Positions 10,613 through 55,261 of a stretch of 64,000 nt of DNA are shown here, piece after piece (position 1 is the first letter of the stretch; each line of letters begins with the position of its first letter). Below the pieces are notes generated by a model. The model was not told the DNA's origin, searched no databases, and saw only the letters and a program-made list of their open reading frames with translations. Location of the stretch: IMG/VR virus record IMGVR_UViG_3300029825_000004. One strand, given 5' to 3'. The position numbers and the translations under genes are program-made. Source of the DNA: a virus.

Positions 10613-10879
10613 TTATTCCTCTGTCTTCTTAACCGCGTCATAGTTCCCGCTGGTAGCCGCGCCAAGAATAACACCTGCCATAACCCCATTAATGGCGGGG
10701 TTGCCGGTTAAATAAGCCCAGAGCATCCCTAACCCCATGCCGCCGCCGATAGAAACCAGCGGCAGGTACTTTGACGGGATACCAGCCAGCCTGATAGCTT
10801 TGACCAGAATCCCATTGATAACAAGAGCAGAAGCCCCGCCGATAGCGTATTGAGCAGCTATTTGATTTAAATTTTCCAT
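10613..10879 (-). CDS. Small holin-like membrane protein
   Basis: Three hydrophobic segments, KYLPLVS and GAATSGNYD motifs, directly after endolysin. Confidence 0.75.
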   Translation of the reverse strand: MENLNQIAAQYAIGGASALVINGILVKAIRLAGIPSKYLPLVSIGGGMGLGMLWAYLTGNPAINGVMAGVILGAATSGNYDAVKKTEE

Positions 10880-34159: not shown

Positions 34160-35812
34160 TTACCAATTCACTGAAACACCGCAAATATCGGGCATCAAAG
34201 TATGCTCAAAGTCTGTCTGCACTTGATGGAATAATGCCGCTACCATTTGCAATGCTTCCGGCTCATCATCATATTTCAATGAACCCAAATAAATAAGCCC
34301 CTCAATGAGGGACTGTTGTGACTTATGAAATTTGATGTAGCCGTTTATTATCATCGGTTGTAACTGCGCTTTTATCCTAGAATGTTTATCCCCTCTAGGT
34401 TTCGGCTCTGTTACGATATTCAAGTAAGTACCATTTTTTGCTGATGCTTTTTGGACATTACCTGCAAAATATTCTTGATAGGCTACACCTTCAATGTAAA
34501 ATTCTTGATAGTTAAATCTTATCTGCTTATCGAATATATCTAATATCTGTTGGTCGGGTGAACGCCTGCGGGCATCAGTTTCTACCACATAAAGATAACC
34601 GTTCTTATCCCTTGCCATAGTGCAGATAGAAGACAGGTCACTCTTTTCGTTCTTCCCTAAAGAGGGGTCTAATGCACCCTTTATGATACATTCCGATAAG
34701 TCAGGCAGGTATTCATAGTACTGAAAGTCATCGGGTGTAATCCAAGCTGTATCGGGGTCAATCGGCTCATTCTGATATTCAGAGTTATAAGCAGCAGGTC
34801 CCAAGTCGATTAGTTTTCTCTTATAATAGTAAATATCCTTAGCTTGAGGCCATATAACTTCTGAACCAGCTTCCATTTCTTCTTTGTGTTCTAAAAAGAA
34901 TTTATAAGCATCTTCCACATTGTTTGGATTAGACTTATCGGTATAAATATCTTTCCAATCAATCCATAATGGGCTATCATTATCCTTTATTACTGCCTTG
35001 TATTTTTTAGTTCGATAACCCGGTTTCTGTAAAAGATTATTTAAAAGGCTATCGTAATGCAAAATTGTCCCAATGACCACCACATCGGTTTTCTTTGAAC
35101 CTGCGTTCATCACAACCTTGTTAAACCAGTTCATCAAATACTTGCGCTGGTCTGGACTTCTAACGTTTTCGTCATTCTCAATATCATCAAGGATTATTAA
35201 ATCAGGCCGGTATTGTTTGTGTTTGATACCACGAACCTTTTTTCCTGAACCCTTAGCAACTATCAAAACATCGTTTTTAAGCAAAATAGCATCAGTTTTC
35301 CATGTAGTTTGTCCTTTGAGCTTACCGAAATCTTCTAGTATGTATTCGTTTTCCTCTAATGCGGTTTTCACTTGCTTTAAGTCATCTATTGCTTGCTCAC
35401 TACTATCTGAAATCAATACTATATAATGCTTTTTGCCGTATACAGCATTATTAGCCGTATAAATCGTATTCCAAGAAGTAGACTTCGCAGATTCACGAGG
35501 GGCAGCTATGATAACTGTTTCGCCGCCACCACTTTTCTCTATCCTCCGCATTTCCGCATATTGCTCATGGTGAAATTCACATGGCGGTAAAGAACAGTAT
35601 TCGGGGAAATATGCTCTACCGAAAAATTCGTAGTCTATGTCCCCTAACTGCTTTCTCAATCCATACGGGCCAGTCAAAGGCAGTCCATGGCTAATTATGT
35701 TACCTGCTTTATCCCTTATTGGTCTGTCTGCCATTTCCTGTATTTGTTCTTCGGTAAAATGCTTCGGCAAGTATTCAAATATTAAATCAGCTAAATACTG
35801 CTCATAATCCAT
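34160..35812 (-). CDS. terL: Terminase large subunit
   Basis: Walker A APRESAKST, Walker B LIILDDIE, VIGTILH, nuclease ALDPSLG; ATG at 35812. Confidence 0.93.
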   Translation of the reverse strand: MDYEQYLADLIFEYLPKHFTEEQIQEMADRPIRDKAGNIISHGLPLTGPYGLRKQLGDIDYEFFGRAYFPEYCSLPPCEFHHEQYAEMRRIEKSGGGETVIIAAPRESAKSTSWNTIYTANNAVYGKKHYIVLISDSSEQAIDDLKQVKTALEENEYILEDFGKLKGQTTWKTDAILLKNDVLIVAKGSGKKVRGIKHKQYRPDLIILDDIENDENVRSPDQRKYLMNWFNKVVMNAGSKKTDVVVIGTILHYDSLLNNLLQKPGYRTKKYKAVIKDNDSPLWIDWKDIYTDKSNPNNVEDAYKFFLEHKEEMEAGSEVIWPQAKDIYYYKRKLIDLGPAAYNSEYQNEPIDPDTAWITPDDFQYYEYLPDLSECIIKGALDPSLGKNEKSDLSSICTMARDKNGYLYVVETDARRRSPDQQILDIFDKQIRFNYQEFYIEGVAYQEYFAGNVQKASAKNGTYLNIVTEPKPRGDKHSRIKAQLQPMIINGYIKFHKSQQSLIEGLIYLGSLKYDDEPEALQMVAALFHQVQTDFEHTLMPDICGVSVNW

Positions 35813-35830
35813 GCAACCACCACCCAATAC

Positions 35831-35863
35831 AACAAAAAAACCACCGACATAAAGCCGATGGTC
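35831..35863 (-). terminator. Intrinsic terminator after tRNAs
   Basis: GACCATCGGC-TTTAT-GTCGGTGGTT followed by T-run. Confidence 0.65.
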
Positions 35864-35879
35864 ACTAATCGAATTATTA

Positions 35880-35956
35880 TGGAGCCGACTAGAAGGACTT
35901 GAACCCCTAACTTGATGTTTACAGGACATCCGCTCTACCAATTGAGCTAAGTCGGC
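35880..35956 (-). tRNA. tRNA-Thr(UGU), non-canonical (C33, bulged T-stem)
   Basis: GCCGACT acceptor, D arm GCTC/GAGC, anticodon loop CCTGTAA, TTCAAGT loop, encoded CCA. Confidence 0.8.
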
Positions 35957-35959
35957 ATA

Positions 35960-36035
35960 TGGCAGGAGTGACAGGACTCGAACCTGCATATCAACGATTA
36001 ACAGTCGTTTGCCTTACCAAATCGGCTACACTCCT
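35960..36035 (-). tRNA. tRNA-Asn(GUU)
   Basis: AGGAGTG/CACTCCT acceptor, loop CTGTTAA, TTCGAGT loop, G73 discriminator, CCA. Confidence 0.92.
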
Positions 36036-40663: not shown

Positions 40664-40770
40664 TCCAAACACCTGCCTTTCAGTGTCTGCCTGCAAATAA
40701 CAAAAGGCTTATATCAGGCAGTAGGCATCTGCTTTTCGGGAGCTACCCTAGATATAAGCCCTGTATTAAC

Positions 40771-42813: not shown

Positions 42814-43221
42814 CTAACTCTCGCCCTTGCGGCTGTCTAATAGCTCTCTTAAACTCGGACCTGCATCTATGGTCTGGTGGACGTTGACCGTGGCCGTAGG
42901 TTGGTATATGCCGGCAAGCTCAAGTAGCATCTTAATAGCTGCTGTATCACCCATGGCCGCTTGCGCGTTAAGAGCCTGTGATGCAGGAGCCGCGCCGGAT
43001 AGTAGCATGGTCTGGCATAGCTCTGTATAAGCCTTTTTAAAGCTCTCATCCTTAAATAAGGCATAGTATGTAGTCCTTGATATATTGGCAATCTCGCATT
43101 GCTTTGTTATATTCATAGTCCGGCATTCCGGCCGGGTAACCACTTCTAGGAGACGGATTGCCGCATCGGTCAGGTCGTTCTTGGCGGCTACAATGTCAAT
43201 TTTATGCGTTAAGTCACTCAT
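42814..43221 (-). CDS. terS: Terminase small subunit (phBC6A51-like HTH)
   Basis: ITKQCEIANISRTTYY HTH, GDTAAIKMLLELAG motif; first gene of late operon. Confidence 0.7.
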   Translation of the reverse strand: MSDLTHKIDIVAAKNDLTDAAIRLLEVVTRPECRTMNITKQCEIANISRTTYYALFKDESFKKAYTELCQTMLLSGAAPASQALNAQAAMGDTAAIKMLLELAGIYQPTATVNVHQTIDAGPSLRELLDSRKGES

Positions 43222-43419
43222 AGTATCACATCCTCATTCGTTCAGTATAGCCGGGAGGTTGACTGGCTTTTTCGTACTGCATAATTATTCATTCTCCTGT
43301 ATATTTATTCATTGTACTTCCTTATTTGATTACTTACATTTCTAATATGACACACAATGAAATATATATGACGCACATTGAACCTTAACATTGTTAATTG
43401 TGCTATACTATTTGCTTAA

Positions 43420-43662
43420 TCTTACACGCTAATTAAAAAACGACTCTTACACGCTGATCGTTTGGTTATGCCAAACGAGTTTTATTAGCGACAGGAGTTA
43501 TTACTTTTTGCCTTGAGGGGACCCTTAATCTTATATATCTAAGAAGCATTTAACGAGGTAAAATCGATTTGCGCCTTACGGCATCCGAGGATTGGGGCTA
43601 TTTTTTTACAGTACAAAAATGCACTTTTTTAGGGTCAGAAAAGTACAAATTTGCACTTTTTT
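43420..43662. repeat. Two pairs of direct repeats in AT-rich intergenic region
   Basis: TCTTACACGCT at 43420 and 43445; AGTACAAA(AA/TT)TGCACTTTTTT at 43610 and 43642. Confidence 0.75.
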
Positions 43663-44192
43663 TAAACCGTGTATTCCTCTTCTGGTTCTTCTAGCGTTGT
43701 TGCCGTATTAAAGGTGTTTATAAGACTTGCGCCAGGGGTTTTCCCATTAAGCGCGAATTGAGGGTTAATCACAAGGCCTCTTTTTTTATCGTTGGCTAGG
43801 TAGGCTAAAATCTTCTTTTCCATCAGTCCGGCAACCGCTTTTCTTCTGGCTCTTGGCTCCAGTCCGGTTATTTTTTCTATATCCGCCCAAGATAACGGCT
43901 GTTTTTTAATGCCGAGCGTAACGCCGTCGCCCACAAGTAAATTAGACTCCCAGTCCATATAGGGCAACACCGATAACAAGAATATCTTTTCTGGCCCCGT
44001 GAGGGTTTTAAGCTTTCTCTTAATTTCGAGCCGACTATTTATTTTAATATGTTTAGTCCGGCTTTCTTTCCCTCTAGGGTTCCATGTGCCTACGAGCTCT
44101 TCGGGTTTGCGTTCTATTGTATCGCGATACAATATCTCTCCTGTATCCGGGTTAACAACTCTTTTAGATTCAATGATATTATTCTTTTTCAA
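43662..44192 (-). CDS. RepL-like winged-helix replication/maintenance protein
   Basis: VVNPDTGEIL N-terminus, LSWADIEKITG...LMEKKIL HTH, INPQFALNG motif; TTG start at 44192. Confidence 0.55.
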   Translation of the reverse strand: MKKNNIIESKRVVNPDTGEILYRDTIERKPEELVGTWNPRGKESRTKHIKINSRLEIKRKLKTLTGPEKIFLLSVLPYMDWESNLLVGDGVTLGIKKQPLSWADIEKITGLEPRARRKAVAGLMEKKILAYLANDKKRGLVINPQFALNGKTPGASLINTFNTATTLEEPEEEYTV

Positions 44193-44481
44193 TTTTCCAC
44201 CGCCTTCCCAAAACACCGCCAATAAATAAAGGTTTGCCCGTGTCCGCACAACTGGCGGTGTGTAGTCCGTGCTTTCGGTCGGCCAAACCTAGACACGGGC
44301 ATATAAAAAGCCCGGATTCCTCCGAGCTGATTATCAAACTAAGTTTTAAGTTTTTTGCGACTGTATAATTTTGCTACCATAAAGATAACACATCTAAATA
44401 CATATAAATAGGGCACTAAGGGTGCAAAATCGTATCAAAACCGTATCATTTTTGGATTTTGGGCTGATCTGAGCGGGCGTC

Positions 44482-44510
44482 TTGCGGGTAGTTATCTTTT
44501 TTGCTATCCT
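44482..44510 (+). promoter_or_regulatory. Sigma-A-like promoter with GGTAGTTA half-site
   Basis: TTGCGG-N17-TATCCT upstream of RHH gene. Confidence 0.45.
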
Positions 44511-44542
44511 AGAGATAGGTTTTAAAAGGAGTGATAAATAAC

Positions 44543-44719
44543 ATGCCCAACAAGTACAAAGAGGGTACTAAAGCAATTTTAGTACGGATGCCGCAAGAGG
44601 ATAAAGAGCGAGTGGACCGGGCGGCAAAAGCCATAGGCACTACGACTACCGAGTTAGCGCGGCAAGCTATTTTTGATCGGGTGACCATGATAGAGCGGCT
44701 GCAAGGCGATAGCAAGTAG
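44543..44719 (+). CDS. Ribbon-helix-helix (CopG/Arc-like) regulator
   Basis: KAILVRMPQEDKERVDRAAKAIGTTTTELARQAI RHH pattern. Confidence 0.75.
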   Translation: MPNKYKEGTKAILVRMPQEDKERVDRAAKAIGTTTTELARQAIFDRVTMIERLQGDSK

Positions 44720-44844
44720 GTGCTTGTATTGCCCGTATGTCGGGCATCGTGGCTTTAGGTATATTTGGCGATTAATGCCGGTATGTATCGCCGGTTTTTG
44801 GGGATGCGTTGCATGTTTTCCTGCGTAATTTGCACAAAAAATGC

Positions 44845-44873
44845 TTGACGGTAGTTAACTACCATGGTATACT
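44845..44873 (+). promoter_or_regulatory. Strong sigma-A promoter with palindromic operator
   Basis: TTGACG-N17-TATACT; perfect palindrome GGTAGTTAACTACC at 44850-44863. Confidence 0.8.
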
Positions 44874-44879
44874 AGTATC

Positions 44880-45150
44880 AGATAGAGGGAGACACACGGC
44901 AGACCGGGAGTTGAACCCGGCAAGGCTCTACGAAAACCGCATACCACCCGCACCGGCTGGGAGGGCCGGAAGTAGCCGAAGACACATCTTATTTGCAAAA
45001 CCCCCGCGCAGCGAGATTGTATCCCTCGCGGGAGGACGGGAACGCCGGGAAGGGACCCGGGCAGAGGCGAAACTGGAAGCACCGGACACGGGGCGGGAGG
45101 GATGCACGGATGACGATCTTTGACAACTAAATACGGATGTCCCGCTAGAA
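44880..45150 (+). ncRNA. Candidate structured non-coding RNA
   Basis: GC-rich, several hairpins, directly after strong promoter, no RBS-supported ORF. Confidence 0.5.
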
Positions 45151-45153
45151 TCC

Positions 45154-45193
45154 TAGCATGAGCTCTAAGCATGAGCTCTAAGTATGAGCTTTA
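45154..45193 (+). repeat. 13-bp tandem repeat x3
   Basis: TAGCATGAGCTC TAAGCATGAGCTC TAAGTATGAGCTT. Confidence 0.8.
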
Positions 45194-45228
45194 GGGCTGA
45201 TGTGAGGATTTTAGGGAGGGATGATAAC

Positions 45229-45438
45229 ATGAAGATGGAAATCACGTTGGGAGCAGACGAAGCAGCCGCCATTGCGCAGGTTGCCGAGGAACTAGGGAAG
45301 GACCTAGAAACTGCCATACATGAGCTAGTCCTCCGGGGCTACGGACAGTGGCAGAACGAGCGGAGTATCCAGGCCATGCAGAGGCACAGCGAGGAGTACC
45401 GGAGAGTGCACCCGGTTAGCACCGGGCTGCAGAGATAG
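45229..45438 (+). CDS. Small protein, possibly RHH-like
   Basis: AGGGAGGG RBS; MEITLGADEAAAIAQVAEELGKDLETAIHELV. Confidence 0.55.
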   Translation: MKMEITLGADEAAAIAQVAEELGKDLETAIHELVLRGYGQWQNERSIQAMQRHSEEYRRVHPVSTGLQR

Positions 45439-45524
45439 CAGAGTGACGGGGAGAAATCCCTGGTAATGCGCACCGCTCAGTAGGGCGGTCCCGGTCACAA
45501 GCCCGGCAGAAAGGAAGGGGAAAG

Positions 45525-45755
45525 ATGATATATAGAATTACTGTTGACAATGGGCGCTTCCCGTTGACCTGCGATTGCACCACGGCACATGAGGCACTTG
45601 GTTGCATTGAGGCCCTCACAACCGGATTACTTAGCAATGCACCTATAGATTGGAACATGGACGCTATCATGAACAATCTCATTGAAATGAAAAAAGGGAA
45701 TATGCTCAGAGAGAGCAATGCTTGGTGGGCAATTGAGCGAATAGAGGATGACTAA
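45525..45755 (+). CDS. Hypothetical early protein
   Basis: AAAGGAAGGGG RBS, 76 aa. Confidence 0.65.
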   Translation: MIYRITVDNGRFPLTCDCTTAHEALGCIEALTTGLLSNAPIDWNMDAIMNNLIEMKKGNMLRESNAWWAIERIEDD

Positions 45756-45806
45756 TCCCGCCTGATAATAGGCCAGCCGGAGCTAATCCCGGCAGAAAGG
45801 AAGCGA

Positions 45807-46115
45807 ATGAAAATGTTAAAAACAGCAAGAACATTTGACGGTGCGTGGGCTGTTGTTGTAGAGAACAAAGAACAGGAACCCTGGGCAATATTTTGCAACA
45901 AGGAAGATGCGGAGGAATACATCGCTGAGGTTATACTGGTCTACAATGATGGCGAATTAGTGCATGCCGGAAGCCTGGAAAGTTTCTTGGCGGATAATGG
46001 GCACGATGAATGGCTAACAGAAGAATGCAAAAAGCTCGAAATAATGGGCAGTATTGAGTTTAGCGACATATCTGGTGACTGGCTCATAAAAAGAGAGCGC
46101 CAGAATCCGCAGTAG
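45807..46115 (+). CDS. Hypothetical acidic early protein
   Basis: AAAGGA RBS, 102 aa, D/E-rich. Confidence 0.65.
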   Translation: MKMLKTARTFDGAWAVVVENKEQEPWAIFCNKEDAEEYIAEVILVYNDGELVHAGSLESFLADNGHDEWLTEECKKLEIMGSIEFSDISGDWLIKRERQNPQ

Positions 46116-46155
46116 GCCAGCCGGCGCCAATGCCGGCGCGAGGGGCAACAACTCC

Positions 46156-46184
46156 TTGTAATATAAAGCAAGCAAGCGTATAAT
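46156..46184 (+). promoter_or_regulatory. Sigma-A promoter
   Basis: TTGTAA-N17-TATAAT with AAGC repeats in the spacer. Confidence 0.75.
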
Positions 46185-46216
46185 ATTACCCAAAACGAGC
46201 AAGGAGGATTAGGTAT

Positions 46217-46369
46217 ATGGCACAAGTAATGGTACAGCTAAATTTCAGATTACCCGTTGCCCTAAACGAGAAGTTAGAGGCGCTCGCTAAGGACACCGGA
46301 AAGACGAAAACTGAGATAGTTGCCACAGCCTTGGAAGAATATTTTGAGAGGGCCGAAAAGAAAGACTAG
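46217..46369 (+). CDS. Ribbon-helix-helix regulator (50 aa)
   Basis: Hand translation MAQVMVQLNFRLPVALNEKLEALAKDTGKTKTEIVATALEEYF; AAGGAGG RBS. Confidence 0.8.
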   Translation: MAQVMVQLNFRLPVALNEKLEALAKDTGKTKTEIVATALEEYFERAEKKD

Positions 46370-46413
46370 CCTGGCAGCTCGAAAAGGAGCGGGGAGAAAG
46401 GAGAAGGGAACAT

Positions 46414-46671
46414 ATGGAAAAGAGGATTAAGAATTTAGTAGACTTAATTAATGGTTTGGACCTAGAAGGGGTATCTGCAAGATATACCGGAACCCCTAAG
46501 AATCCGGATTTCATTTTGGAAATCGCAAATCGATTTGAGGAAAGATTTGACAATATTGAGGATATGTCCGAATGTCTTAATTTCCGCAACAAGCAGGAGG
46601 ACGATGGCCTATTGGACGATGTAGACCAGGCCATATGCGAGGCCGCGCGGGAGGCCGGGCTTCTTTCATAA
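46414..46671 (+). CDS. Hypothetical acidic early protein
   Basis: 85 aa, strong RBS. Confidence 0.65.
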   Translation: MEKRIKNLVDLINGLDLEGVSARYTGTPKNPDFILEIANRFEERFDNIEDMSECLNFRNKQEDDGLLDDVDQAICEAAREAGLLS

Positions 46672-46695
46672 ATTAGATTTTAAGGAGGAATAAAA

Positions 46696-47070
46696 ATGAA
46701 GATTATAACCAAGAGCCACATCGACGAGATTCACGCCGCCGGACCTAATTTTAGCAGCGCGGTAAGTGATGATGGATTGTATAGCTTGCTCAGTGGCGCA
46801 ACCGGCTATGTGAGCATCAACTGCGCCCTGAGCGGGTTGGATGACAACACTATCGGCAAGACCGGCTGGCACGTAGTTTATCTGCCGCAGCCTGGAGATT
46901 GCCCCGATGCCCTGCTGGCAGGTGCGCGGGAGTTTAGTCGAGTAGTTGACGCAATTGTCACCGAGCGCAAGGCATTTGCGGACAAGGCAGCTGATGATAT
47001 AGCTGCCCATGATAGCAACATTTGCCCCAAGTGCGGGACGTACTGTTATGGTGATTGCGAGGGCAACTAG
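46696..47070 (+). CDS. Hypothetical protein with C-terminal CPKCGTYCYGDC motif
   Basis: AAGGAGG RBS, 124 aa. Confidence 0.7.
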   Translation: MKIITKSHIDEIHAAGPNFSSAVSDDGLYSLLSGATGYVSINCALSGLDDNTIGKTGWHVVYLPQPGDCPDALLAGAREFSRVVDAIVTERKAFADKAADDIAAHDSNICPKCGTYCYGDCEGN

Positions 47071-47204
47071 CCTCAGAAAAGCAAATGAGGGGTTAATCCC
47101 CTCTTGCTACACAAACTAATTTGTTTTTATCCACGCTCAATAGCGACTAGCAACACTTAAAGGGTAACACAACTATCCCAACAAAGTAAAGGAGGATATT
47201 AATA

Positions 47205-47507
47205 ATGGCAGAAATAAAAATCTATAAAATCACCTGCACGAGAGCAGTTATGATGGACGAGCAAGGAGAGGGCTACTCCTTGTATCCGTGGGGTGATGAT
47301 ACCTGCTCTTATGAGGGTTATGACGATGGCGGGGAAATGTATGTGCTGCCGGCTGGGTACAAGGTCGGGAGATCTCAGTACGGGGAAAAGTGCATTTACA
47401 ATGCTAAGGGCAGTTACTGCCCGCTAACCAAGCAGTACAACAGTCCGGCAATAGTAGATTCTGATTTTAACTGCGATGCGACAGTAATGCTAAAAAGGGC
47501 ACAATGA
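47205..47507 (+). CDS. Hypothetical early protein
   Basis: AAAGGAGG RBS, 100 aa. Confidence 0.7.
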   Translation: MAEIKIYKITCTRAVMMDEQGEGYSLYPWGDDTCSYEGYDDGGEMYVLPAGYKVGRSQYGEKCIYNAKGSYCPLTKQYNSPAIVDSDFNCDATVMLKRAQ

Positions 47508-47526
47508 TAACTTGGAGGTGTTGGCT

Positions 47527-48018
47527 ATGGGGCGTAAATCTATATCACAGCGGCTGTCTGCTGCCAAGTCACCGGACACTAAGGCAGAAATAAAAGCAGA
47601 GTGGGCAGCTGCATGGGAGTCCGAAACAATGCAAGTTTTTGCCCGACTGGAGCGGGCTATACAGCGGAATGACTTTGACGAGCTGTGTATTTCTGCGGGC
47701 CAGCTTAAGGCAGTCTTGCAAAAGCATTTTACTGCGCTCCCGAATGTATTAAAAAGCGGCGAGAATGTCCCCTCAGTAGACCCGCCAGAGCCATTGGGCT
47801 CAGCAGAAGAACCATGTAAGTCTCAAAAAGTTATCCCTCTTATGCCGGAGGGATATATAACTCTCCGTGAGTGGTCGATTAAAAACGGCAAGAGCCCGCG
47901 AAGGGGTCAAAGAATACTTGTGGAGCAGCCTAATGTTGTGCCCGCAATAAAAGTACGTAATCCTCGCGGGGGTGTAGACATATGGGCTGTGCCCGAAAAT
48001 ACGCCTTGGCCGTTTTAG
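47527..48018 (+). CDS. Hypothetical protein with C-terminal HTH-like domain
   Basis: GGAGGTG RBS; YITLREWSIKNGKS...IWAVPENTPWP motif. Confidence 0.65.
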   Translation: MGRKSISQRLSAAKSPDTKAEIKAEWAAAWESETMQVFARLERAIQRNDFDELCISAGQLKAVLQKHFTALPNVLKSGENVPSVDPPEPLGSAEEPCKSQKVIPLMPEGYITLREWSIKNGKSPRRGQRILVEQPNVVPAIKVRNPRGGVDIWAVPENTPWPF

Positions 48019-48104
48019 ATAACGTATAACTCGCCTTTCCCCTGCTCCTTCTCAGGGGGTGGGGATAAGGGCGAGAGCTCAAGCAAAACAAAGGAGGGAA
48101 CAGC

Positions 48105-48482
48105 ATGAAATGGTACGCAGCAACCACAGTCGCGCCCGATGGTAAAGATTACGTCGGCATCAATGAGTATTACGGCGGCGAAGAATCTCAGGAGGGATTT
48201 GTCAGTCTGCATGGCTCAGAGGACGAAGCGGAGGCGGCTTGTATCAAGTACGCTCAGGAGCAGGGGTTGCCGTTGTTTGCGGATTATAGGGAGGGAAAGA
48301 GAATGGAAAAGAAACTATATAGATGCTGCAACACTTGCGCTCACAAAGATAACAGTTTTTATCAATGTAGTAAGGCGTCGGAATGTTATAACGGCTTTAG
48401 TGCTTATAGTCCAAACGAAGAAATGAAAAAGCAAGAATCGAAAATAGAAACGGAAAAGCCCCAGCCTGCCAGCCGGAGCTAA
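48105..48482 (+). CDS. Hypothetical protein
   Basis: AAGGAGGG RBS; C-terminal CCNTC..C cluster. Confidence 0.6.
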   Translation: MKWYAATTVAPDGKDYVGINEYYGGEESQEGFVSLHGSEDEAEAACIKYAQEQGLPLFADYREGKRMEKKLYRCCNTCAHKDNSFYQCSKASECYNGFSAYSPNEEMKKQESKIETEKPQPASRS

Positions 48483-48583
48483 TCCCTCAGTAACACACAT
48501 AACCGGGGGTTATATGCGTCCCTCAGTAAGACCATTATAACCCCGGACTCAGTAAAAAATCAATTTTGGGAAAGGGTTTTTTT

Positions 48584-48994
48584 ATGGGTAAAACGAACAT
48601 TCAGCAGAAAAATTATATGCGTGCGAAGGCATTGGTTGAAACTCTCGAAGCAGAGGCTGAACGCATCGAAAAAGCCTATATAACTCAGCATGGCATTGTT
48701 AATCCTGATGGCTCAGTACCGAACAGAATCTATGATATAGAGGACGAAGTCGTATTTGACAGTGTCAACGAAGAAACGGTGGCGGAGATTGATGCCCTGG
48801 GCTTATACGAAGCCCGAGAAATCCTGCGTGAAGCGGAAAACGAACTAATTAAATACGGTCTTTCCATTGTTCCCGCCAAAGAGCGGCAAATACTCAGTGA
48901 CCGCTGTTTTGGCAATAATGGCCATTATGTGCACGTTGATATCCGGCAGAAGGTTATAGAGATTTGGCTTGGAAACTTGATGTTTCGACCGTGA
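48584..48994 (+). CDS. Hypothetical acidic protein
   Basis: ATG at 48584; GIVNPDGSVP..IYDIED motif. Confidence 0.65.
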   Translation: MGKTNIQQKNYMRAKALVETLEAEAERIEKAYITQHGIVNPDGSVPNRIYDIEDEVVFDSVNEETVAEIDALGLYEAREILREAENELIKYGLSIVPAKERQILSDRCFGNNGHYVHVDIRQKVIEIWLGNLMFRP

Positions 48995-49041
48995 CAACTG
49001 GGGCGGTTTAATCCGCTCCCGGCTCAGTAAGGAGGAACCCT

Positions 49042-49155
49042 ATGGACGAATTAAAAGCCCTAATTTCAGGGCTCAAAAACGACATAAACGACCTGCGCCT
49101 AATCGTTGATGATCTTGAATGCAGGATTGAAATTTTAGAAGGGAGCGAAGAATAA
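49042..49155 (+). CDS. Small coiled-coil protein (37 aa)
   Basis: AAGGAGG RBS; MDELKALISGLKNDINDLRLIVDDLECRIEILE. Confidence 0.55.
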   Translation: MDELKALISGLKNDINDLRLIVDDLECRIEILEGSEE

Positions 49156-49156
49156 T

Positions 49157-49444
49157 ATGTGGAAATGGGATTATGACGAAGAATTATTACCGGCGAATAT
49201 CAGCGAAATCCTAATTGATGAGGACGGCAATAAAATCCTCAGCATCGGCGGGGAGGCCGTAGAGGGATTTTACTTCAAGATAACAGAGGAGAATAAGCGG
49301 CTTATTGCCGCTACTCCCGATATATATGAGTGTCTGAGGAGTATAATTAATGACTTGCCCCTAAATCGCGATTGGTTAGACCCAGAATTAGAGTGGAGGG
49401 CGAAGCAAGCCCTCCGTAAAGCCGAAGGGAGGGGTACCGAATGA
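49157..49444 (+). CDS. Hypothetical protein
   Basis: LIAATPDIYECL motif, 95 aa. Confidence 0.6.
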   Translation: MWKWDYDEELLPANISEILIDEDGNKILSIGGEAVEGFYFKITEENKRLIAATPDIYECLRSIINDLPLNRDWLDPELEWRAKQALRKAEGRGTE

Positions 49445-50190
49445 ACGAGCAAGCAATAGCTGAATTAATAGCCTCTATTCCCGGCGCAACCGTGGAAATC
49501 TCAGAGGATGCCATAAAAATTACCAATGCGCCCGGCCTCAGTAGCCTCAGTAGCCCACAAAAGAAAACCAGGGGCAAGCGAAAGGCTAAAAAGCTACCCA
49601 AAACAATTACCTCAGAACAGTTTGTCCAGTTGGTGGGGGTAATTAATCCGGATAAAGATTACCCTACCGGCAAAGGCAGACGGAATGTTACAGACCTCAG
49701 AAATCGGGTTATATTAGAAACGCTGTATCGCGCCGGGTTAAGGATACAGGAACTATGCGACCTGGCCCCTGCCGATGTGAATCTAAAAAAAGGGATTCTG
49801 TACGTCCAGGAAGGCAAAAACGATAGGGACAGAAAAATTCCTTTTGGTGAAGAATTGCAATGCTGGTTTAAGCGGTGGATAGAAGTGCGCCCTCAGGGGG
49901 CAGAGTATTTATTCTGTACCGCCAGAGGAGGGCAGTTGGACACCCGACAAGTCCGGGCAATGGTGGAGCGCGTCAGTAATAAATCGGGAGTCTTCATCCA
50001 GTCCGGTAAAAAGCAAAAGCCGGTTTGGCCCCATGCCTTGCGGCATACCTGCGCTACCAACTGGCTTGACCAAGGGCTTAACATTCGCGAGGTACAGGAG
50101 CTCTTAGGGCATGAGGTGGTCAGTACCACTATGAGGTATACCCATGTCTCTATGAAGGACCTGGACAAGAAGATCAAGGCACTTGGGTAG
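49441..50190 (+). CDS. Tyrosine recombinase, catalytic domain only (Xer/Fim-like)
   Basis: R (AGLRIQE), K (GKND), HALRH, LLGH, Y (TTMRYTH) catalytic residues; no core-binding domain. Confidence 0.9.
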   Translation: MNEQAIAELIASIPGATVEISEDAIKITNAPGLSSLSSPQKKTRGKRKAKKLPKTITSEQFVQLVGVINPDKDYPTGKGRRNVTDLRNRVILETLYRAGLRIQELCDLAPADVNLKKGILYVQEGKNDRDRKIPFGEELQCWFKRWIEVRPQGAEYLFCTARGGQLDTRQVRAMVERVSNKSGVFIQSGKKQKPVWPHALRHTCATNWLDQGLNIREVQELLGHEVVSTTMRYTHVSMKDLDKKIKALG

Positions 50191-50229
50191 CTCAGAAGTC
50201 CTACCCTCAGTAGAAGAAAGGAGTAATCC

Positions 50230-50451
50230 ATGGATCTTAAAGCTGTAGTCCTGGAGTGCTATAATAACGATGACATTATTAAAGAATTTAATAGGCTTAC
50301 CGGGCATCAATTGAAGAAACCGATTTGGAATGACATTGATACACTAATTGATGATGCCTGCAATTATAAACCCAATGAAAAAGGAATAATTGAATTTATT
50401 CAATTTGTCGAGCAATTTATCTGGATGCCATTAGCAGTAAATCCTCAGTAA
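50230..50451 (+). CDS. Hypothetical protein
   Basis: AAAGGAG RBS, 73 aa. Confidence 0.6.
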   Translation: MDLKAVVLECYNNDDIIKEFNRLTGHQLKKPIWNDIDTLIDDACNYKPNEKGIIEFIQFVEQFIWMPLAVNPQ

Positions 50452-50466
50452 CGGCCAGACACCCCT

Positions 50467-50503
50467 GCCTCAGTAGGTCAAGCGGCTTACTGAGGTTTTT
50501 TAT
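50467..50503 (+). terminator. Intrinsic terminator closing the leader block
   Basis: CCTCAGTAG...TTACTGAGG followed by TTTTTTATT. Confidence 0.7.
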
Positions 50504-50716
50504 TGCCTAAAATATCGCGTATGAGCATTTACTGCCAAAACCGAGCTAAGCAGGAAATGGACAAGGGAAGCGGCTGCTTAAAACTGCCGCTGACCCCGGA
50601 GAAGAGCTGCGCCTGACCGCCCGGGAGAAAGAGCCGCAGGTCAGCTGGAGGCAAAAGAAAAGGCCGGGGAGCGCCCCCCGGCCAGCTAAATACGCACTAC
50701 ACAGTAACTACGCAGT

Positions 50717-50899
50717 TTACTCCTTAAATGGTGGTTTATCAAGGCTTGGAATAGGGTTCGAAACCCTGCCAGCTTCATAGTTTGCAATATTTGTTCTTTT
50801 CATCTCTAATTTTTCGGCTAATTGCTCTTGAGATAATCCGCACTCTTCCCTTCTTGTTTTAATCCGCACTCCTATTTCCTTCTTAATATCTTTACTCAT
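50717..50899 (-). pseudogene. Truncated XRE-family (cI/ImmR-like) repressor
   Basis: IGVRIK..REECGLSQEQLAEKL..KRTNIANYEAGR HTH, then stop after 60 aa. Confidence 0.7.
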
Positions 50900-50943
50900 T
50901 TATAAACCTCCAAAATTTTTTTACACAAAGCGGCATACACCTA

Positions 50944-50993
50944 TTGACTTACTTTAAAATGACGTTTATTATTAAGATGTCATTATAAAGTAA
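50944..50993 (+). promoter_or_regulatory. Cro promoter with inverted-repeat operator
   Basis: TTGACT-N17-TATTAT; TTACTTTAAAATGAC / GTCATTATAAAGTAA inverted repeat with one mismatch. Confidence 0.7.
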
Positions 50994-51017
50994 GCGCGAA
51001 GGGTGGTGATAAAATTG

Positions 51018-51251
51018 ATGCCCGACAGAAGATCGCAATTTAGAAAATATCGCAAAATATACAATGTTTCCCAACGTAAAGTATCCATAGACCTTAACGT
51101 AAGCGAAAATCACATCCGAAATATCGAATCAGGGCGCGGGAATCCTGATGCTAAATTGTTATTTAAATTATGTAATTATTTTGGCGCTAAACCAGAAGAA
51201 TTATTTCCTGATCTTGCTTGCGTTAGTGTTCCCAGTCCTAAAAGAGCTTAG
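51018..51251 (+). CDS. cro: Cro-like HTH regulator
   Basis: SQRKVSIDLNVSENHIRNIESGRGNP HTH, divergent from repressor. Confidence 0.8.
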   Translation: MPDRRSQFRKYRKIYNVSQRKVSIDLNVSENHIRNIESGRGNPDAKLLFKLCNYFGAKPEELFPDLACVSVPSPKRA

Positions 51252-51327
51252 TCATTATTATAAACCGTTATTTAAAATAACGCAATAAAACAATTAATTT
51301 ATTTTAAAAAAACAAGAAGGTGACGGC

Positions 51328-52077
51328 ATGAGTAATATTGTTAAACGCGATTTTAAGGGAATCTCTGTTGCATTTGAAGGCAAAGAAAAAGTGAGTTTAA
51401 CAGATTTATGGAAGGCGGCTGATAGCCCCGATAATAAGAATCCAAATGAATGGATTCGCTATGCTGGCGCTGAGTTTATTGAAGAATTATCCAAAAAATT
51501 AAATACGGGGATAACCCATATTATAACCTCCAAGCGCGGCAAGGGTGGGGGGACATGGGCTCACTGGCAAGTTGCCTTAGCCTATGCTAAATATCTCTCT
51601 CCTGAACTTCATATGTTTGTCAATCAATGCTTCATGGAGCGCATACAGGAAGAAAATAATCCGGAGCTCGCTATTACTCGAGGCAGAGAACGCGCCATCC
51701 GCAAGTGGAAAAAAGAAGGCAAGTCTGATGAATGGATAGCGGCCAGGATACGAACCATTAATGCGGCTAAAACAAATAATCGTGTTTTAAAAAAGCATGG
51801 TGATGATTATATGGTCTTTCCCATGTGCGCTAACGCAATGAATCGGCAGATATTGGGCATGGAGGCTAAGCAGTACAAGGAAGCCCGTGGATTACCCGTC
51901 AAATCCACAACCCGCGACTTTCTTGATGATATTCAATTAGCCGAGCTCGAATTATCCAGCCTTGTAAGCGCAAAGCGCATTCAAGATGATTCCATTTACG
52001 GTAACCAAGCCTGTGCCAGCGTCCACGAGGTAATTGCTGGTCGTGTTCATAAGGCCGTAACGGTGCGCGGAGTATAA
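51328..52077 (+). CDS. KilA-N domain antirepressor-like protein
   Basis: SLTDLWKA, GGGTWAHWQVALAYAKYLSPE motifs. Confidence 0.85.
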   Translation: MSNIVKRDFKGISVAFEGKEKVSLTDLWKAADSPDNKNPNEWIRYAGAEFIEELSKKLNTGITHIITSKRGKGGGTWAHWQVALAYAKYLSPELHMFVNQCFMERIQEENNPELAITRGRERAIRKWKKEGKSDEWIAARIRTINAAKTNNRVLKKHGDDYMVFPMCANAMNRQILGMEAKQYKEARGLPVKSTTRDFLDDIQLAELELSSLVSAKRIQDDSIYGNQACASVHEVIAGRVHKAVTVRGV

Positions 52078-52089
52078 GGAGGATTAATA

Positions 52090-52305
52090 ATGCGTGAGCC
52101 AGACGGATACAGAGAACAATTAGAACGTCTGTCCGAGTGCTACCCAGGCATAGAGGTCCTGACCTTGCCGGAAGTATGCAAAATGCTCAGGCGTCACCGG
52201 CAAACCCTACTGGCAGATAAGAGTTTTCCAGCCAAGCGGTTGGGCGGCAAGGGGAAATATTACATACCCATAGTTGGATTAGCCAGATGGATGATGACAC
52301 GCTAG
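52090..52305 (+). CDS. Excisionase-like HTH protein
   Basis: VLTLPEVCKML...GKYYIP..GLARWM winged-helix pattern. Confidence 0.65.
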   Translation: MREPDGYREQLERLSECYPGIEVLTLPEVCKMLRRHRQTLLADKSFPAKRLGGKGKYYIPIVGLARWMMTR

Positions 52306-52631
52306 GCAAAAAACTTATCAGTCCTATTACCTTGAAAGGTGTGATTCTTACCTCGACATCTCCTTAACGGGAGCTATAAACCCTTCGACCTTTGCGGGCG
52401 GTATATCTGGAGCCATTGTGCCGGGACGAGCAGCAAAGGGCAGGCCTGAGTGAATGAAAGCTACGGGTTATTGAGGGGTAAGTAACCTAGCCGACGGACT
52501 GGGCGAAGAATAAGGACGCAGCAAGAATTTCAGTAAGACAAGCCTATGACGATAGAGATTGATTATAGAGGAGAGAGCATTGGCAACAAGAATAAACCCC
52601 CTCATGGAAATAGAATAGGAGGAACAATCAA

Positions 52632-52895
52632 GTGAAAACAAAAACCACTTATGAGTGCGAAAAATGCGGCATGGAATTCGATAGTTACGAGAAGTGTCTA
52701 AATCATGAAGAAAACAAGCATATAGACCCGGATTTCCTTGCCGGTTTTCATCTATTTAAAACTACGCATCCAAGGGATGGAATTTATCCAGTAGTAGTGG
52801 ATATTCCTATGAAAGACGGCGCTATAGTGCGTTATTCTTCTATTAAAACAATTAGGCAACCACAAGAAAAAAGCCCATGCGCCAACATGGACTAA
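52632..52895 (+). CDS. Hypothetical zinc-finger protein
   Basis: YECEKCG.EF..YEKCLNHE C2H2-like motif. Confidence 0.65.
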   Translation: MKTKTTYECEKCGMEFDSYEKCLNHEENKHIDPDFLAGFHLFKTTHPRDGIYPVVVDIPMKDGAIVRYSSIKTIRQPQEKSPCANMD

Positions 52896-53007
52896 AAACA
52901 AATATGTACTTATAGTTTACAATTAAATACTTATGCAGACAAGGAGAATTTATGCAGGGCAGGATTGAAATATTCTGCCCTGTTTCGATTTAAGGAGGAA
53001 TCATAAA

Positions 53008-53337
53008 TTGACTAAACTCGACATTATAAATAAACTCGCTTCCCTGCCCGATCTGATTGAAGAGCAGGAGAAAGTTGTCATTGCCGCTTATCAGCAGGTG
53101 CAAGAGAGCAAGAGCATATTGACCGAAGCTGAGGACGTTTTATTCCTTAGCGGTCAGATTGACGGTAAAAATGCTGAAATCCGTGCTGCTCAGATGAGAG
53201 AAAACACGACAAGCGAGCGCGAGACAGTACAGAATGCCGAAAGAGTCTTAACCATTGAGCAGGTAAAAATAAACCGCTTGAACAACGAACTGGCGATATG
53301 CCGAGCCATTGCCTGGATGTTGAAGGGGGCTGAATAA
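53008..53337 (+). CDS. Coiled-coil protein of recombination module
   Basis: IDGKNAEIRAAQ motif, helical. Confidence 0.6.
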   Translation: MTKLDIINKLASLPDLIEEQEKVVIAAYQQVQESKSILTEAEDVLFLSGQIDGKNAEIRAAQMRENTTSERETVQNAERVLTIEQVKINRLNNELAICRAIAWMLKGAE

Positions 53338-53610
53338 GTGAAATTTGACCCAGATTTTTTAAGGGATAAGTTAGGTCTGCCCTTCACCGCAGTTGAAGAT
53401 AAAATAGTCGATAATTCTCGATGGTCTATCTATCATGAAATTATCTTTGAGTACGAAGGTAAATTTTATAAAACCCATTATTCTGTCGGGGCTACCGAAT
53501 GCCAAGATGAAAGCCCATGGGAATACGAGGATGAAGTTGATTGTACAGAAGTTGTCCAAAAGGAAGTTACTGTAACGGCATGGGCGCCTGTAGAGGAGGG
53601 GGCTGAATAA
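53338..53610 (+). CDS. Hypothetical acidic protein
   Basis: RWSIYHEIIF...GATECQDESPWE motif. Confidence 0.65.
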   Translation: MKFDPDFLRDKLGLPFTAVEDKIVDNSRWSIYHEIIFEYEGKFYKTHYSVGATECQDESPWEYEDEVDCTEVVQKEVTVTAWAPVEEGAE

Positions 53611-54608
53611 TGAGCGAAACAGCATTGGCGATAGCAAAAGACTATCCTGCCGATAAATATAATCTGCTTATCCCGGTTAAAACCATGCAGGAATTAAGCC
53701 CGCTTCATAAACTCGTAATTAACGAAGTTCAAATATCCCCGAACCTTAATGATAAGGATGTTTACAAGGAGAAAAATAGCGAACTAGCCTTAACTAAAAA
53801 AGCCTTAATGAAGCTCATGGCGGCGGCAAATATTCAGGTAATTAATAGTGAATCAGTCCCTACCCAGAAGTGCAACAAATGCATTGAGGTAGCACAACGA
53901 ACCAAGATGGCCCCGAAATGCTTTGAATGCCCATACCAAGATGATGTTGCTTGTCAAGTAACTATTGCCGTCCCTGAGCCAAGCGGAACATACAGAATTG
54001 TTAAAGCAACCAAAGAAATACGCATGGCTGATGCTGAAGGTTTAATGTCTGCTGCGCAATTCAAGCAGTTTAAGCCTTTTAGGACCGAGCAATGCGAGGC
54101 TAAGGCATTAAACAGAGCTTTGCGCCAAGGACTTATGCTTAAGTCCAGTTACAAAGAAAACGAGCTCAAAAAGCCTTTTGCCGTTGCGCTGGTAATGCCT
54201 AACATGAGCGACCCCGACTTAAAGCAGGCTATGATTGAGCGGTATGCTAATAATGTGAACACTTTGTATGGTGGACCGCAATTGTCTATTTCACCCGCTG
54301 GTCAGCCCCAAATATCTTTACCCGATTCACAGGTTGACGTTATCCCCCCGGAGGACGATGATATTGACTACGAAACCGGCGAAGTCATATCTGCCTATAC
54401 TGAGGTCATTGATATCACAGAGCCAGAGGACGAAGAGGTTTTGACTTGCGAAGAATGCGGAACCGAGCTTGCGCCAGTGACCGATAAGACAGGCAAGGAA
54501 TGGACTATTGCCGACCTTGTGGACCTGAGCATGGGGCATTTCAATAAGGTTCTATGCCCTGCTTGTTACAACAAGGAAAAGAAAGCCAAGAAAGCGGGTG
54601 GGAAGTGA
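53610..54608 (+). CDS. Putative single-strand annealing protein (RecT/Sak-like role) with C-terminal zinc finger
   Basis: EAKALNRALR motif, acidic linker, CEECG...LCPAC; precedes SbcCD. Confidence 0.55.
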   Translation: MSETALAIAKDYPADKYNLLIPVKTMQELSPLHKLVINEVQISPNLNDKDVYKEKNSELALTKKALMKLMAAANIQVINSESVPTQKCNKCIEVAQRTKMAPKCFECPYQDDVACQVTIAVPEPSGTYRIVKATKEIRMADAEGLMSAAQFKQFKPFRTEQCEAKALNRALRQGLMLKSSYKENELKKPFAVALVMPNMSDPDLKQAMIERYANNVNTLYGGPQLSISPAGQPQISLPDSQVDVIPPEDDDIDYETGEVISAYTEVIDITEPEDEEVLTCEECGTELAPVTDKTGKEWTIADLVDLSMGHFNKVLCPACYNKEKKAKKAGGK

Positions 54609-55261
54609 TGCCTCCATTAATTAACCTTACGGGACAACGATTTGGGAGACTTGTTGTCTTGGAAAGGGCAGGTAGTAAAAATAAAAGAACCACATGGTTA
54701 TGTCAATGTGATTGCGGGAATACGCATATTGCTACGAAAGACTATTTGCGCAGTGACACAACTCATAGTTGCGGATGTTCTGCAAAAGAAAGACGTCAAA
54801 GGGCATCACGTAAACATGGACTTTGGGGAATAAGGCTTTATCATATTTGGGACAACATGAAACGCAGATGCCAAAACCCGGACAATCCGGGTTTTTATCT
54901 TTATGGGGAAAGAGGCATTTGCCTTTGTTCTGAATGGAATGAGTTTCAGCCATTTTATGATTGGGCAATAGCAAATGGATATGATGATAGCTTACAGTTG
55001 GACAGAAGAAACAATCATAAAGGCTATTCGCCTGATAATTGTAGATGGGTAACCAGTACAGTCAATAACAGAAACAAAAGAAGCAATCGTCCCATTACTT
55101 TCAATGGCAAAACTAAAATATTAAAAGAATGGGCCGAATTTCTAGATATTAACTATAACACGCTTAGAAAGAGATTAGGTAAATGCGGGTGGAGTATAGA
55201 AAAGGCGTTTACCACGCCAATAGATAGGGGGAAAAGCCATGCGCGTCGGACATATAAGTGA
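54608..55261 (+). CDS. HNH-type homing endonuclease
   Basis: LTGQRFGRLVV...WLCQCDCG, YGERGI, LDRRNNHKGYSPDNCRW motifs. Confidence 0.85.
   Translation: MPPLINLTGQRFGRLVVLERAGSKNKRTTWLCQCDCGNTHIATKDYLRSDTTHSCGCSAKERRQRASRKHGLWGIRLYHIWDNMKRRCQNPDNPGFYLYGERGICLCSEWNEFQPFYDWAIANGYDDSLQLDRRNNHKGYSPDNCRWVTSTVNNRNKRSNRPITFNGKTKILKEWAEFLDINYNTLRKRLGKCGWSIEKAFTTPIDRGKSHARRTYK

Follow-up and report, generated by a model that had tools for sequence, protein, structure and literature searches.

The leader operon and its CTCAG field

The window analysed here, 64 kb out of the 66.9-kb phage contig of IMG/VR record IMGVR_UViG_3300029825_000004, contains a leader operon in which copies of the pentamer CTCAG are crowded on one strand. 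The leader is the first early operon of the phage. It encodes two ribbon-helix-helix (RHH) proteins (44531-44719 and 46217-46369), small open reading frames (ORFs) without known family and, at 49441-50190, a tyrosine recombinase of short length. The field of CTCAG copies covers the distal part of this operon, and the features of the leader and the field are as follows.

44845-44873, + strand: start of the leader operon, promoter-like TTGACG-17-TATACT
44845-47071, + strand: proximal leader, with few CTCAG copies (3 on the + and 3 on the - strand); a diffuse zone in which the orientation switches back
47072-50475, + strand: motif field, with 26 CTCAG in the same direction and a single one in reverse (49334)
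47205-47507, 47512-48018, 48105-48482, 48566-48994, 49042-49155 and 49157-49444, + strand: six small ORFs without known family
48030-48075, + strand: long intergenic hairpin with a CTCAG (48051) at its apex
48484-48555, + strand: intergenic triple of CCCTCAGTAA, CCCTCAGTAA and ACTCAGTAA, interleaved with hairpins ATAACCGGGGGTTAT and CCGGGG..CCCCGG
49000-49035, + strand: hairpin GGGGCGGTTTAATCCGCTCCC followed by CTCAGTAA, which runs into the Shine-Dalgarno sequence AGGAGG
49441-50190, + strand: short Xer-like tyrosine recombinase, 249 aa, with 6 motif copies; PF00589 at 1.3e-39
49536-49553, + strand: tandem CCTCAGTAG-CCTCAGTAG (Leu-Ser-Ser twice) inside the recombinase gene
50230-50451, + strand: last small ORF, 73 aa, phrog_5692, the stop codon TAA of which belongs to a CCTCAGTAA copy
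50467-50502, + strand: strong terminator of the leader operon
50468-50495, + strand: terminator pair CCTCAGTAGG-TCAAGCGG-CTTACTGAGG, followed by a T-run

An earlier reading of the letters alone (the sequence-only reading) had counted 25 copies of CTCAG on the + strand between 47072 and 50475, 12 of them CTCAGTA, against a single CTGAG. The count was 26, with the 12 CTCAGTA unchanged, and the one copy on the - strand was located at 49334. The longer forms CCTCAGTA and CCTCAGTAG occur 8 and 5 times, respectively. Base composition predicts ~2.6 copies of CTCAG for the block, of which it is the top enriched 5-mer, and the density climbs in the 3' direction from ~2 to 4-6 copies per 500 bp. Alignment of the 26 sites revealed the extended consensus c-CTCAG-[T/a]-[A 21/26, G 5/26]-[G/A], and the spacing between sites is irregular, ranging from 6 to ~300 bp. 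The tandem in the recombinase gene described in the sequence-only reading was found as CCTCAGTAG-CCTCAGTAG, and the final terminator is indeed built from the motif, as CCTCAGTAGG-TCAAGCGG-CTTACTGAGG. The terminator pair forms a head-to-head inverted CCTCAGTAGG-N8-CTTACTGAGG with a 10-8-10 geometry, at which the orientation of the sites flips, and was the only inverted repeat of that geometry in the two stretches scanned for it (50400-51000 and 44200-44900).

The copies are located in both intergenic DNA and ORFs, as had been stated, with 9 in the 413 nt of intergenic DNA and 17 within ORFs, such that the intergenic density is four times that in the ORFs. The fullest copies, of the form (TAATC)C-CTCAGTA-A/G, are intergenic and are positioned after stop codons, beside hairpins and before Shine-Dalgarno sequences. 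The 17 copies within ORFs compare with 3.96 +/- 1.75 (maximum 9) in 2000 synonymous-codon shuffles, and a repeat of the test yielded z = 7.9. They are distributed over frames 0, 1 and 2 as 5, 6 and 6, and those of the six small ORFs between 47205 and 49444 occupy all three frames. Since the excess survives synonymous shuffles and spans all three frames, selection acts at the level of the nucleic acid, and the results support the view of the field as sites arrayed under selection with strand polarity, and not as a by-product of coding.

Strand bias of CTCAG in the rest of the window

The sequence-only reading had considered the motif rare elsewhere in the window, which holds for the + strand, with 8 copies in the other 60.6 kb, but not for the - strand, where the 57 copies are about the number expected; the polarity of CTCAG over the whole genome had escaped it. 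The difference between 8 and 57 copies outside the block corresponds to a binomial P of 3e-10, and away from the block the counts are 3 versus 50. The bias is the same in segments of opposite gene direction.

1-10.8 kb, genes on the + strand: 2 CTCAG on +, 12 on -
13.5-44.2 kb, genes on the - strand: 1 on +, 26 on -
50.5-64 kb, genes on the + strand: 2 on +, 12 on -

The word is consequently on the coding strand of the late operon with its - strand genes (26 versus 1) and on the template strand of the early and middle genes encoded on + (24 versus 4). Codon usage is ruled out as the cause because the two classes of genes show opposite coding-strand preferences. The 8 copies on the + strand compare with 29 expected from a maximal-order Markov model and 45 from dinucleotide shuffles, whereas the 57 on the - strand are at or above the expectation of 45-48, indicating that the + orientation has been purged and the - orientation left alone. 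Among all 5-mers, CTCAG is far ahead for a bias of the same sign in the + and - gene regions. No extended consensus is found around the 57 sites of the - strand outside the block.

The orientation flips sharply between 50469 (+) and 50490 (-), within the terminator hairpin and 280 bp past the Xer-like gene, and from the flip to 58 kb there are 11 copies on the - strand versus 2 on the + strand. The flip back is diffuse, at ~44.5-47.07 kb, near the RepL-like gene and terS.

The word CTCGG is also scarce on the + strand (5 versus 26 expected, with 44 on -). Its bias may reflect coding, because it is strong only where the genes are on + and weak in the - gene region (4/11).

Conservation of the field in related phages

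Homologues of the recombinase number ~260 in public metagenomes. Eleven further loci were fetched, and twelve including the window were compared. The usual architecture consists of a RepL-like gene on the opposite strand, an RHH gene, small genes that vary with the lineage, and the short recombinase as the last or next-to-last gene. The recombinase is the only protein common to all twelve loci, and an RHH protein is encoded at the head of the operon in five. A CTCAG field of the same one-way direction was found at the end of the same operon in five related lineages of phages from metagenomes, listed here with the identity of the recombinase to that of the window and the copies on the + and - strands.

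L009: recombinase 79% identical, CTCAG 11/0 in 1.3 kb
L010/L011: recombinase 57%, CTCAG 22/0
L001/L002: recombinase 56%, CTCAG 22/0
L014: recombinase 48%, CTCAG 11/1
L015: recombinase 45%, CTCAG 11/0

When these five lineages are pooled with the window, the forward word occurs 103 times versus 13.5 expected, and the reverse word 2 times versus 17 expected (P = 6.5e-6). After codon shuffling, CTCAG is also the top in-ORF word of L001 (z = 6.0), L010 (z = 7.6) and L014 (z = 3.7). Alignment of the recombinase genes revealed that some sites are homologous and that many are lineage-specific substitutions at otherwise aligned codons, from which it follows that density has been kept while positions have turned over. 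In the clade of the window the density peaks in and around the recombinase gene, with 6-10 copies in 0.7 kb and 14/kb in L001; in L014 and L015 the field leaves that gene out. The core of the sequence-only reading, a polar array of sites, therefore passes both of the checks that it had proposed, codon-preserving shuffles and conservation in relatives.

A variant of the field is present in L003-L005 (recombinase 49% identical), in which ATCAG (22/2) takes the place of CTCAG and is accompanied by GGTTTAT. The hairpin of L003 is identical to that at 49000-49020 of the window and is followed by its own motif, GGTTTATCAGAG, where the window has CTCAGTAA. The field of L012 is weak (5/1; recombinase 55%), and L007, L008 and L016 contain the recombinase gene and no field. 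A gene restricted to the relatives with a field was looked for and none was found.

Searches for further relatives in the phage GenBank set yielded no match at the DNA level and only distant Xer/integrase matches in protein mode, and IMG/VR contained no match to recombinase peptide patterns or to the exact terminator sequence. A scan of IMG/VR for three nearby copies of CTCAGTA identified at least 115 loci, which were ranked by density; the eight densest were inspected and rejected as further fields, being tandem coding repeats with a period of 6-19 nt. Among the matches listed, none encodes a relative of the recombinase, the RHH proteins, the RepL-like protein or TerL.

A polar signal read on DNA as the favoured interpretation

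Since the + orientation is purged regardless of gene direction, no RNA-level or plain duplex-binding reader can produce the bias, leaving a reader that follows DNA in one direction or senses one strand. Thus, we tentatively favour the interpretation that the field is a polar signal of the class of Chi and KOPS (FtsK-orienting polar sequences), read on DNA by a duplex-tracking or single-strand-sensing machine. The field is a positively selected array in which a short asymmetric word, with the core CTCAG and the fuller form CTCAG-N-R, is repeated independently and always in the same orientation; each site would be weak, would be read independently of the others and would count in one orientation only. 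Independent weak reading fits the irregular spacing, and with 11-26 sites in 2-3.4 kb recognition would become nearly certain. The sites are aimed at the end of the operon (50468-50495), beside the gene for the short Xer-like recombinase and at the point where the orientation flips; with the other 60 kb purged, the block would be the sole place at which the signal is met in the + direction. We infer a directional DNA enzyme as the reader, candidates being a host helicase-nuclease of the AddAB/RecBCD type, a motor of the FtsK/SpoIIIE or SMC type, or the Xer-like protein together with one of these, and the purpose of the field may be to protect or handle this end of the replicon. Among the four kinds of reader named in the sequence-only reading, translocase or helicase guidance and the adjacent recombinase are thus retained as candidates, while a stoperator and a decoy for Type IIG enzymes fit poorly.

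Polar words such as Chi, KOPS, the SpoIIIE recognition sequences (SRS) and stoperators are rare cis-signals that tell moving enzymes the direction of a replicon, and to our knowledge the examples are almost all chromosomal or from one phage cluster. The field resembles the KOPS-dif/XerCD system, SRS, and the TraB recognition sequences of Streptomyces (TRS/clt) in that a short asymmetric word is placed in genes and spacers, with one orientation read and the wrong one selected against. As with KOPS, the polarity flips beside an Xer-type recombinase function. The core of the field is nevertheless 5 bp (8-9 bp in full) rather than a G-rich 8-mer, and its density reaches 10/kb on one short arm. Chi, read by RecBCD/AddAB, is similar in being orientation-specific, read independently and probabilistically, and species-specific, and it may be as short as 5 nt, that of B. 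subtilis being the 5-mer AGCGG; we know of no Chi that resembles CTCAG or CTGAG. Recognition of Chi by AddAB has a probability of ~0.23 per site, and arrays of co-oriented sites attenuate the enzyme strongly, but in just one orientation (PMC5443536). At this value, which is that of AddAB, recognition computes to 0.999 for 26 sites and 0.94 for 11. The avoidance of the reverse word within the fields is as expected of a signal for one-directional loading or blocking and, together with the genome-wide avoidance in the window phage, suits a signal for loading or blocking a motor better than a classical Chi. The one-base variant ATCAG of L003, placed after the same hairpin, is as expected of a specificity that co-evolves with its reader, and genes for FtsK/SpoIIIE-family ATPases (PF01580) are located near the recombinase gene in L003/L004 and in L006.

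Stoperators, the sites of gp71 of L5 and other Cluster A mycobacteriophages, are likewise dispersed asymmetric sites, present in dozens and co-oriented with local transcription in temperate-type phages. They are 13 bp long, mostly intergenic and spread over the whole genome, and they follow transcription in both arms, whereas the field is local, has 17 of its 26 sites in ORFs and is accompanied outside the block by an orientation that ignores transcription. Because that orientation is independent of transcription, the stoperator reading is a poor one.

Several results weigh against a directional reader. In simple Chi logic the inactive orientation should be neutral, with neither the purge (8 versus 29-45) nor the avoidance within fields (2 versus 17). 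The purge was seen only in the window phage and was absent from the 10-18 kb of flanks available for L001, L014, L015 and L003. Unlike KOPS around dif, the field is one-sided in the relatives, with no mirrored polarity past the end of the operon. No FtsK-like gene was detected among the window ORFs scanned, and no match to the dif sites of B. subtilis and E. coli or to difSL was found within 9 mismatches in the window, a query like the dif of C. difficile giving one 9-mismatch match, at 29717 and thus distant from the block. Only L010/L011 share the inverted pair at 50468 with the window, as homologous sequence and not as an independent case, and it is absent from L001 and L009. The field halts exactly at the transcription terminator, as an RNA-level element would, and its last copies are in or just before the terminator in four lineages (the window and L010, L009, L003). 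Finally, a search for the host with TerL in species genomes returned only a spurious match of 24 residues.

The field is real, selected, conserved and polar, and a reading in which direction is sensed on DNA is the best fit, a preference that is held with reserve. It places a dense selected array in the first-expressed and highly mosaic operon of a phage family from fermentation metagenomes, beside a minimal Xer-like enzyme, and makes the window phage a clean and tractable case of orientation-dependent selection on a viral 5-mer. The reader, once found, would either define the equivalent of Chi or KOPS in an uncultured Firmicute host or reveal a new job for Xer-like proteins that lack the core-binding domain.

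The Xer-like recombinase and the half-site alternative

The catalytic domain of the recombinase (residues 84-246) matches those of XerA (4a8e, 9e-31) and XerD (1a0p, 6e-23), and the R..HxxR..H..Y residues are intact in the alignment. It is preceded by ~80 non-homologous residues that include a basic linker rich in Lys and Arg, and no match to the core-binding domain families PF02899, PF13495 or PF13102 was found. An Xer-like catalytic domain without a core-binding domain would suit a short recognition word, and the copies could be half-sites of this protein, with the 5-bp core read on one strand; we regard this alternative as possible, if doubtful. The protein might occupy isolated half-sites, as XerD does at XDS, the sites in the B. 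subtilis terminus at which SMC is unloaded or blocked, or might cleave one strand transiently, in the manner of poxvirus topoisomerase IB at (C/T)CCTT. The terminator pair (50468-50495), with the 10-8-10 geometry of a tyrosine-recombinase core site, would be the single complete core site, for example in dimer resolution of a plasmid-like prophage, and the shunning of inverted pairs elsewhere in the field would avert illegitimate core sites. The presence of the recombinase in all twelve loci is in agreement with this proposal, and the density peak on its own gene in the window's clade suits a protein that acts in cis. There is also a precedent, in that XDS are occupied by an Xer-family protein at non-recombination sites and their array acts on SMC motors, stopping a DNA-tracking motor, according to PMC11840125, citing Karaboja 2021. 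XDS, however, are dif-like sites of ~28 bp, are few and are bound by the full-length XerD of the host, whereas a phage protein is only a candidate binder of the motif.

The distribution of the field among the relatives does not track the similarity of the recombinase: it is weak in L012 (55% identical) and built on ATCAG in L003 (49%), whereas the more distant L014 (48%) and L015 (45%) have CTCAG. Moreover, L007, L008 and L016 have the gene and no field, and the fields of L014 and L015 leave out the gene itself. The inverted pair makes up, first of all, the hairpin of a terminator, in which the spacer is self-complementary, and its conservation does not extend to L001 or L009; a mere duplex binder cannot account for the purge of one orientation.

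A further proposal can be envisaged, in which the Xer-like protein and its one-way array of 5-bp half-sites are a phage device that acts on DNA-tracking machines of the host, although we give it little credence. In one version the device would unload or block loop extruders of the SMC type (condensin or the anti-plasmid Wadjet) on the circularised genome, comparable to XerD at XDS; in another it would be a sequence-specific single-strand swivel comparable to poxvirus topoisomerase IB. The purge would have arisen because stray sites in the active orientation would harm replication or packaging. In either version, the first operon would express a module of a new kind, serving anti-defence or the handling of the genome.

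A possible RNA element and predicted ribozymes in the leader

The leader is rich in functional RNA, and a ribozyme is predicted in its proximal part.

45437-45506, + strand: predicted twister-P5 self-cleaving ribozyme, RF02684, 51.4 bits versus a gathering cut-off of 37.6, full model

The predicted ribozyme is located between small leader ORFs, and the loop of its inserted hairpin presents a complete CTCAGTAG (45476); a strain-level deletion of 887 bp (45504 to 46392) begins at its 3' end. Two twister-P5 ribozymes are predicted in L008 (4684-4738 and 7848-7913), and twister-sister ribozymes in L015 (3182-3257) and L016 (1080-1155). On these predictions, operons of this type, which combine an RHH gene and variable small genes with a short Xer-like recombinase, seem to be a natural home of twister and twister-sister ribozymes.

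The motif could by the same token be an RNA element, CUCAG(U)A in an abundant leader transcript that is bound or cut by an RNA-binding protein or endoribonuclease of the phage or host. It would then act in processing, stability or translation of the cassette mRNAs, in the action of the terminator or as a sponge, alongside the self-cleaving ribozymes. The coding strand always bears the field, which ends at the terminator of the operon; in the window and L010, L009 and L003 the last copies either fall within the terminator, in its 5' arm or loop, or immediately precede it. Intergenic copies are found just past stop codons, just ahead of Shine-Dalgarno sequences and next to hairpins, an arrangement of hairpin, conserved word, Shine-Dalgarno sequence and start codon between small early genes that recalls the start-associated sequences of Cluster K mycobacteriophages (SAS/ESAS, the latter extended) and the RNase III punctuation of the T7 early mRNA. 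Avoidance of the reverse complement within the transcript would leave the sites unpaired.

An RNA element cannot, however, explain the purge of the + orientation over 30 kb of late genes encoded on the - strand (1 versus 26), where the late mRNAs retain CUCAG at a normal rate and the purged strand is the antisense one. The same 5-mer would head both the list for enrichment in the block and that for strand bias outside it by a coincidence of ~1 in 500. Most copies of the field are in ORFs and in all frames, unlike those of SAS/ESAS or the RNase III sites, and the genome-wide strand purge is not explained at the level of RNA. In predicted local folds the motif is not preferentially unpaired (0.53 versus 0.48 in the window, P = 0.14; no trend in L001, L009 and L010), and no Rfam family covered the motif elements in a search of 44-51.5 kb at a relaxed threshold. 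We therefore consider an RNA element unlikely.

Restriction-modification as a possible explanation

CTCAG could also be recognized by a host enzyme that requires inversely oriented sites (Type III, Type ISP or Type IIL), with each domain of the genome made single-orientation and the leader array serving as decoy, sink or methylation target. A 5-bp asymmetric word is typical of Type III enzymes, and outside the block the orientation is near-uniform, depletion affecting a single orientation while the other is as frequent as expected. Phage T7 shows the same depletion of one orientation with respect to EcoP15I, the 5-6 bp asymmetric word (CAGCAG) being present in essentially one orientation throughout its genome. 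The one-base variant ATCAG of another lineage resembles shifts in restriction-modification specificity, and one protein of the window phage, 834 aa long, contains an N6/N4 methyltransferase domain. Avoidance, however, predicts loss of sites and not a tenfold gain, and the 26 sites on the + strand opposed to 57 on the - strand are the very inverted pairs that such enzymes cut. The sole escape would be a linear DNA ending at 50.5 kb, for which there is no support. The genes of T7 are all on one strand and include no dense counter-oriented block, so that the block contradicts simple avoidance, and relatives in which no purge is seen nevertheless have the field. The sequence-only reading had named BseMII and BspCNI, Type IIG enzymes that recognize CTCAG; such enzymes ignore orientation and should deplete both strands, and since the - strand is undepleted (57 versus 45-48 expected), avoidance of or a decoy for them fits poorly. 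Overall, a restriction decoy is improbable, and much less likely than half-sites or an RNA element.

The 834-aa protein (2867-5371, + strand) has its N6/N4 DNA methyltransferase domain confined to the C-terminal 320 residues, and its first 490 residues match no family.

Possible cassette exchange and strain variation

The leader was also compared among strains with Logan contigs from four DNA runs of fermentation metagenomes. The contigs fragment in the leader block of 43000-55000, where whole small genes are skipped or replaced, and the flanking genes show only point changes. The leader is mosaic among co-occurring strains, with 45504-46392, 47006-47153, 47609-48261, 48292-48518, 48485-49093 and 49174-49409 skipped or replaced, and strain variants differ by a 9-nt indel of one copy of the tandem CCTCAGTAG.

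The copies might accordingly be junctions of cassettes at which the recombinase or short-homology recombination swaps small genes, as in integrons or PeSL elements. Such exchange would agree with the strong mosaicism of the block (six skips or replacements and the 9-nt motif indel), with break points that touch the motif (48485|48486, 48518, 48261, 47060 and 50433), with cargo genes that are wholly different between relatives and with the framing of the array by an RHH gene and the recombinase. However, 17 of the 26 copies are inside ORFs, where recombination would wreck genes, and occupy three frames; an integron array has one structured attC per cassette at the 3' end of the ORF and none within ORFs, and no attC-like structure recurs once per cassette here. 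The other break points are 60-160 bp off any copy, and given one copy per 130 bp, break points close to a copy are to be expected. In the cleanest deletion the sequences joined are two similar ribosome-binding stretches (AGAAAGGA) and not motif copies. Cassette junctions are thus a very improbable explanation.

Other explanations were set aside: a pac or cos site, for which the field is too large; a centromere or iteron array, given irregular spacing and polar sites; promoters, given copies in ORFs and roughly every 130 bp; complementarity to 16S rRNA, where chance alone would yield a 6-mer match; a hammerhead NUH target, the flanks not being conserved; and mimicry of CRISPR repeats, there being no repeat-like units.

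Surrounding genes and other observations

The remaining features of the window that define its gene order are as follows.

34160-35989, - strand: terL, in the late operon, which runs from terS (42814-43221) through terL, portal and head genes and then tail genes to 13.5 kb
43662-44249, - strand: RepL-like gene; the window protein has no Pfam match, and the L003 homologue has a weak one to PF05732
50717-50899, - strand: XRE repressor-like gene, facing a cro-like gene and a KilA-N gene

Genes for replication and recombination are located on the + strand downstream of the cro-like and KilA-N genes. The DNA of the window was recovered in runs of four studies labelled fermentation metagenome or just metagenome. 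The sequence-only reading had proposed that the block lies on DNA that probably enters the cell first. Two assemblies of one relative break at different points, which suggests that the genomes are circular or permuted and do not have fixed ends.

A group I intron (RF00028, 92.8 bits, full model) was identified within the region of the large tail gene at 22739-23014 (- strand). A match to the int-alpA RNA (RF02996, 41 bits versus a cut-off of 35.8) is located at 40690-40758 (- strand), between radical-SAM and methyltransferase-like genes, and a stronger copy (61 bits) adjoins the leader in L016 (5218-5285).

In some relatives the leader is adjoined by genes of plasmid type, namely a ParM-like ALP_N gene, genes for FtsK/SpoIIIE-family ATPases and faint Replic_Relax and NikA-like matches (L003, 11336-13817; L006, 12037-13712). 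The leader of L003 also contains LPD29 and DUF3560 genes, and a leader of this type resembles the leading regions of conjugative plasmids. Searches for DnaA boxes and Spo0A boxes returned nothing near the block in the window. In L003, a DnaA-box-like cluster (TTGTCCACA, TTATCCACA and TTATGCACA; 10630-10700) is directly 3' of the leader terminator and may be a replication origin, at a position that matches the orientation flip of the window. In L009, TGTCGAA, a match to the consensus of the Spo0A box, occurs four times in the 2.3-kb contig, with two copies (TGTCGAAT) just downstream of the leader terminator at 1400-1450, which hints at a spore-forming host and sporulation-linked control.

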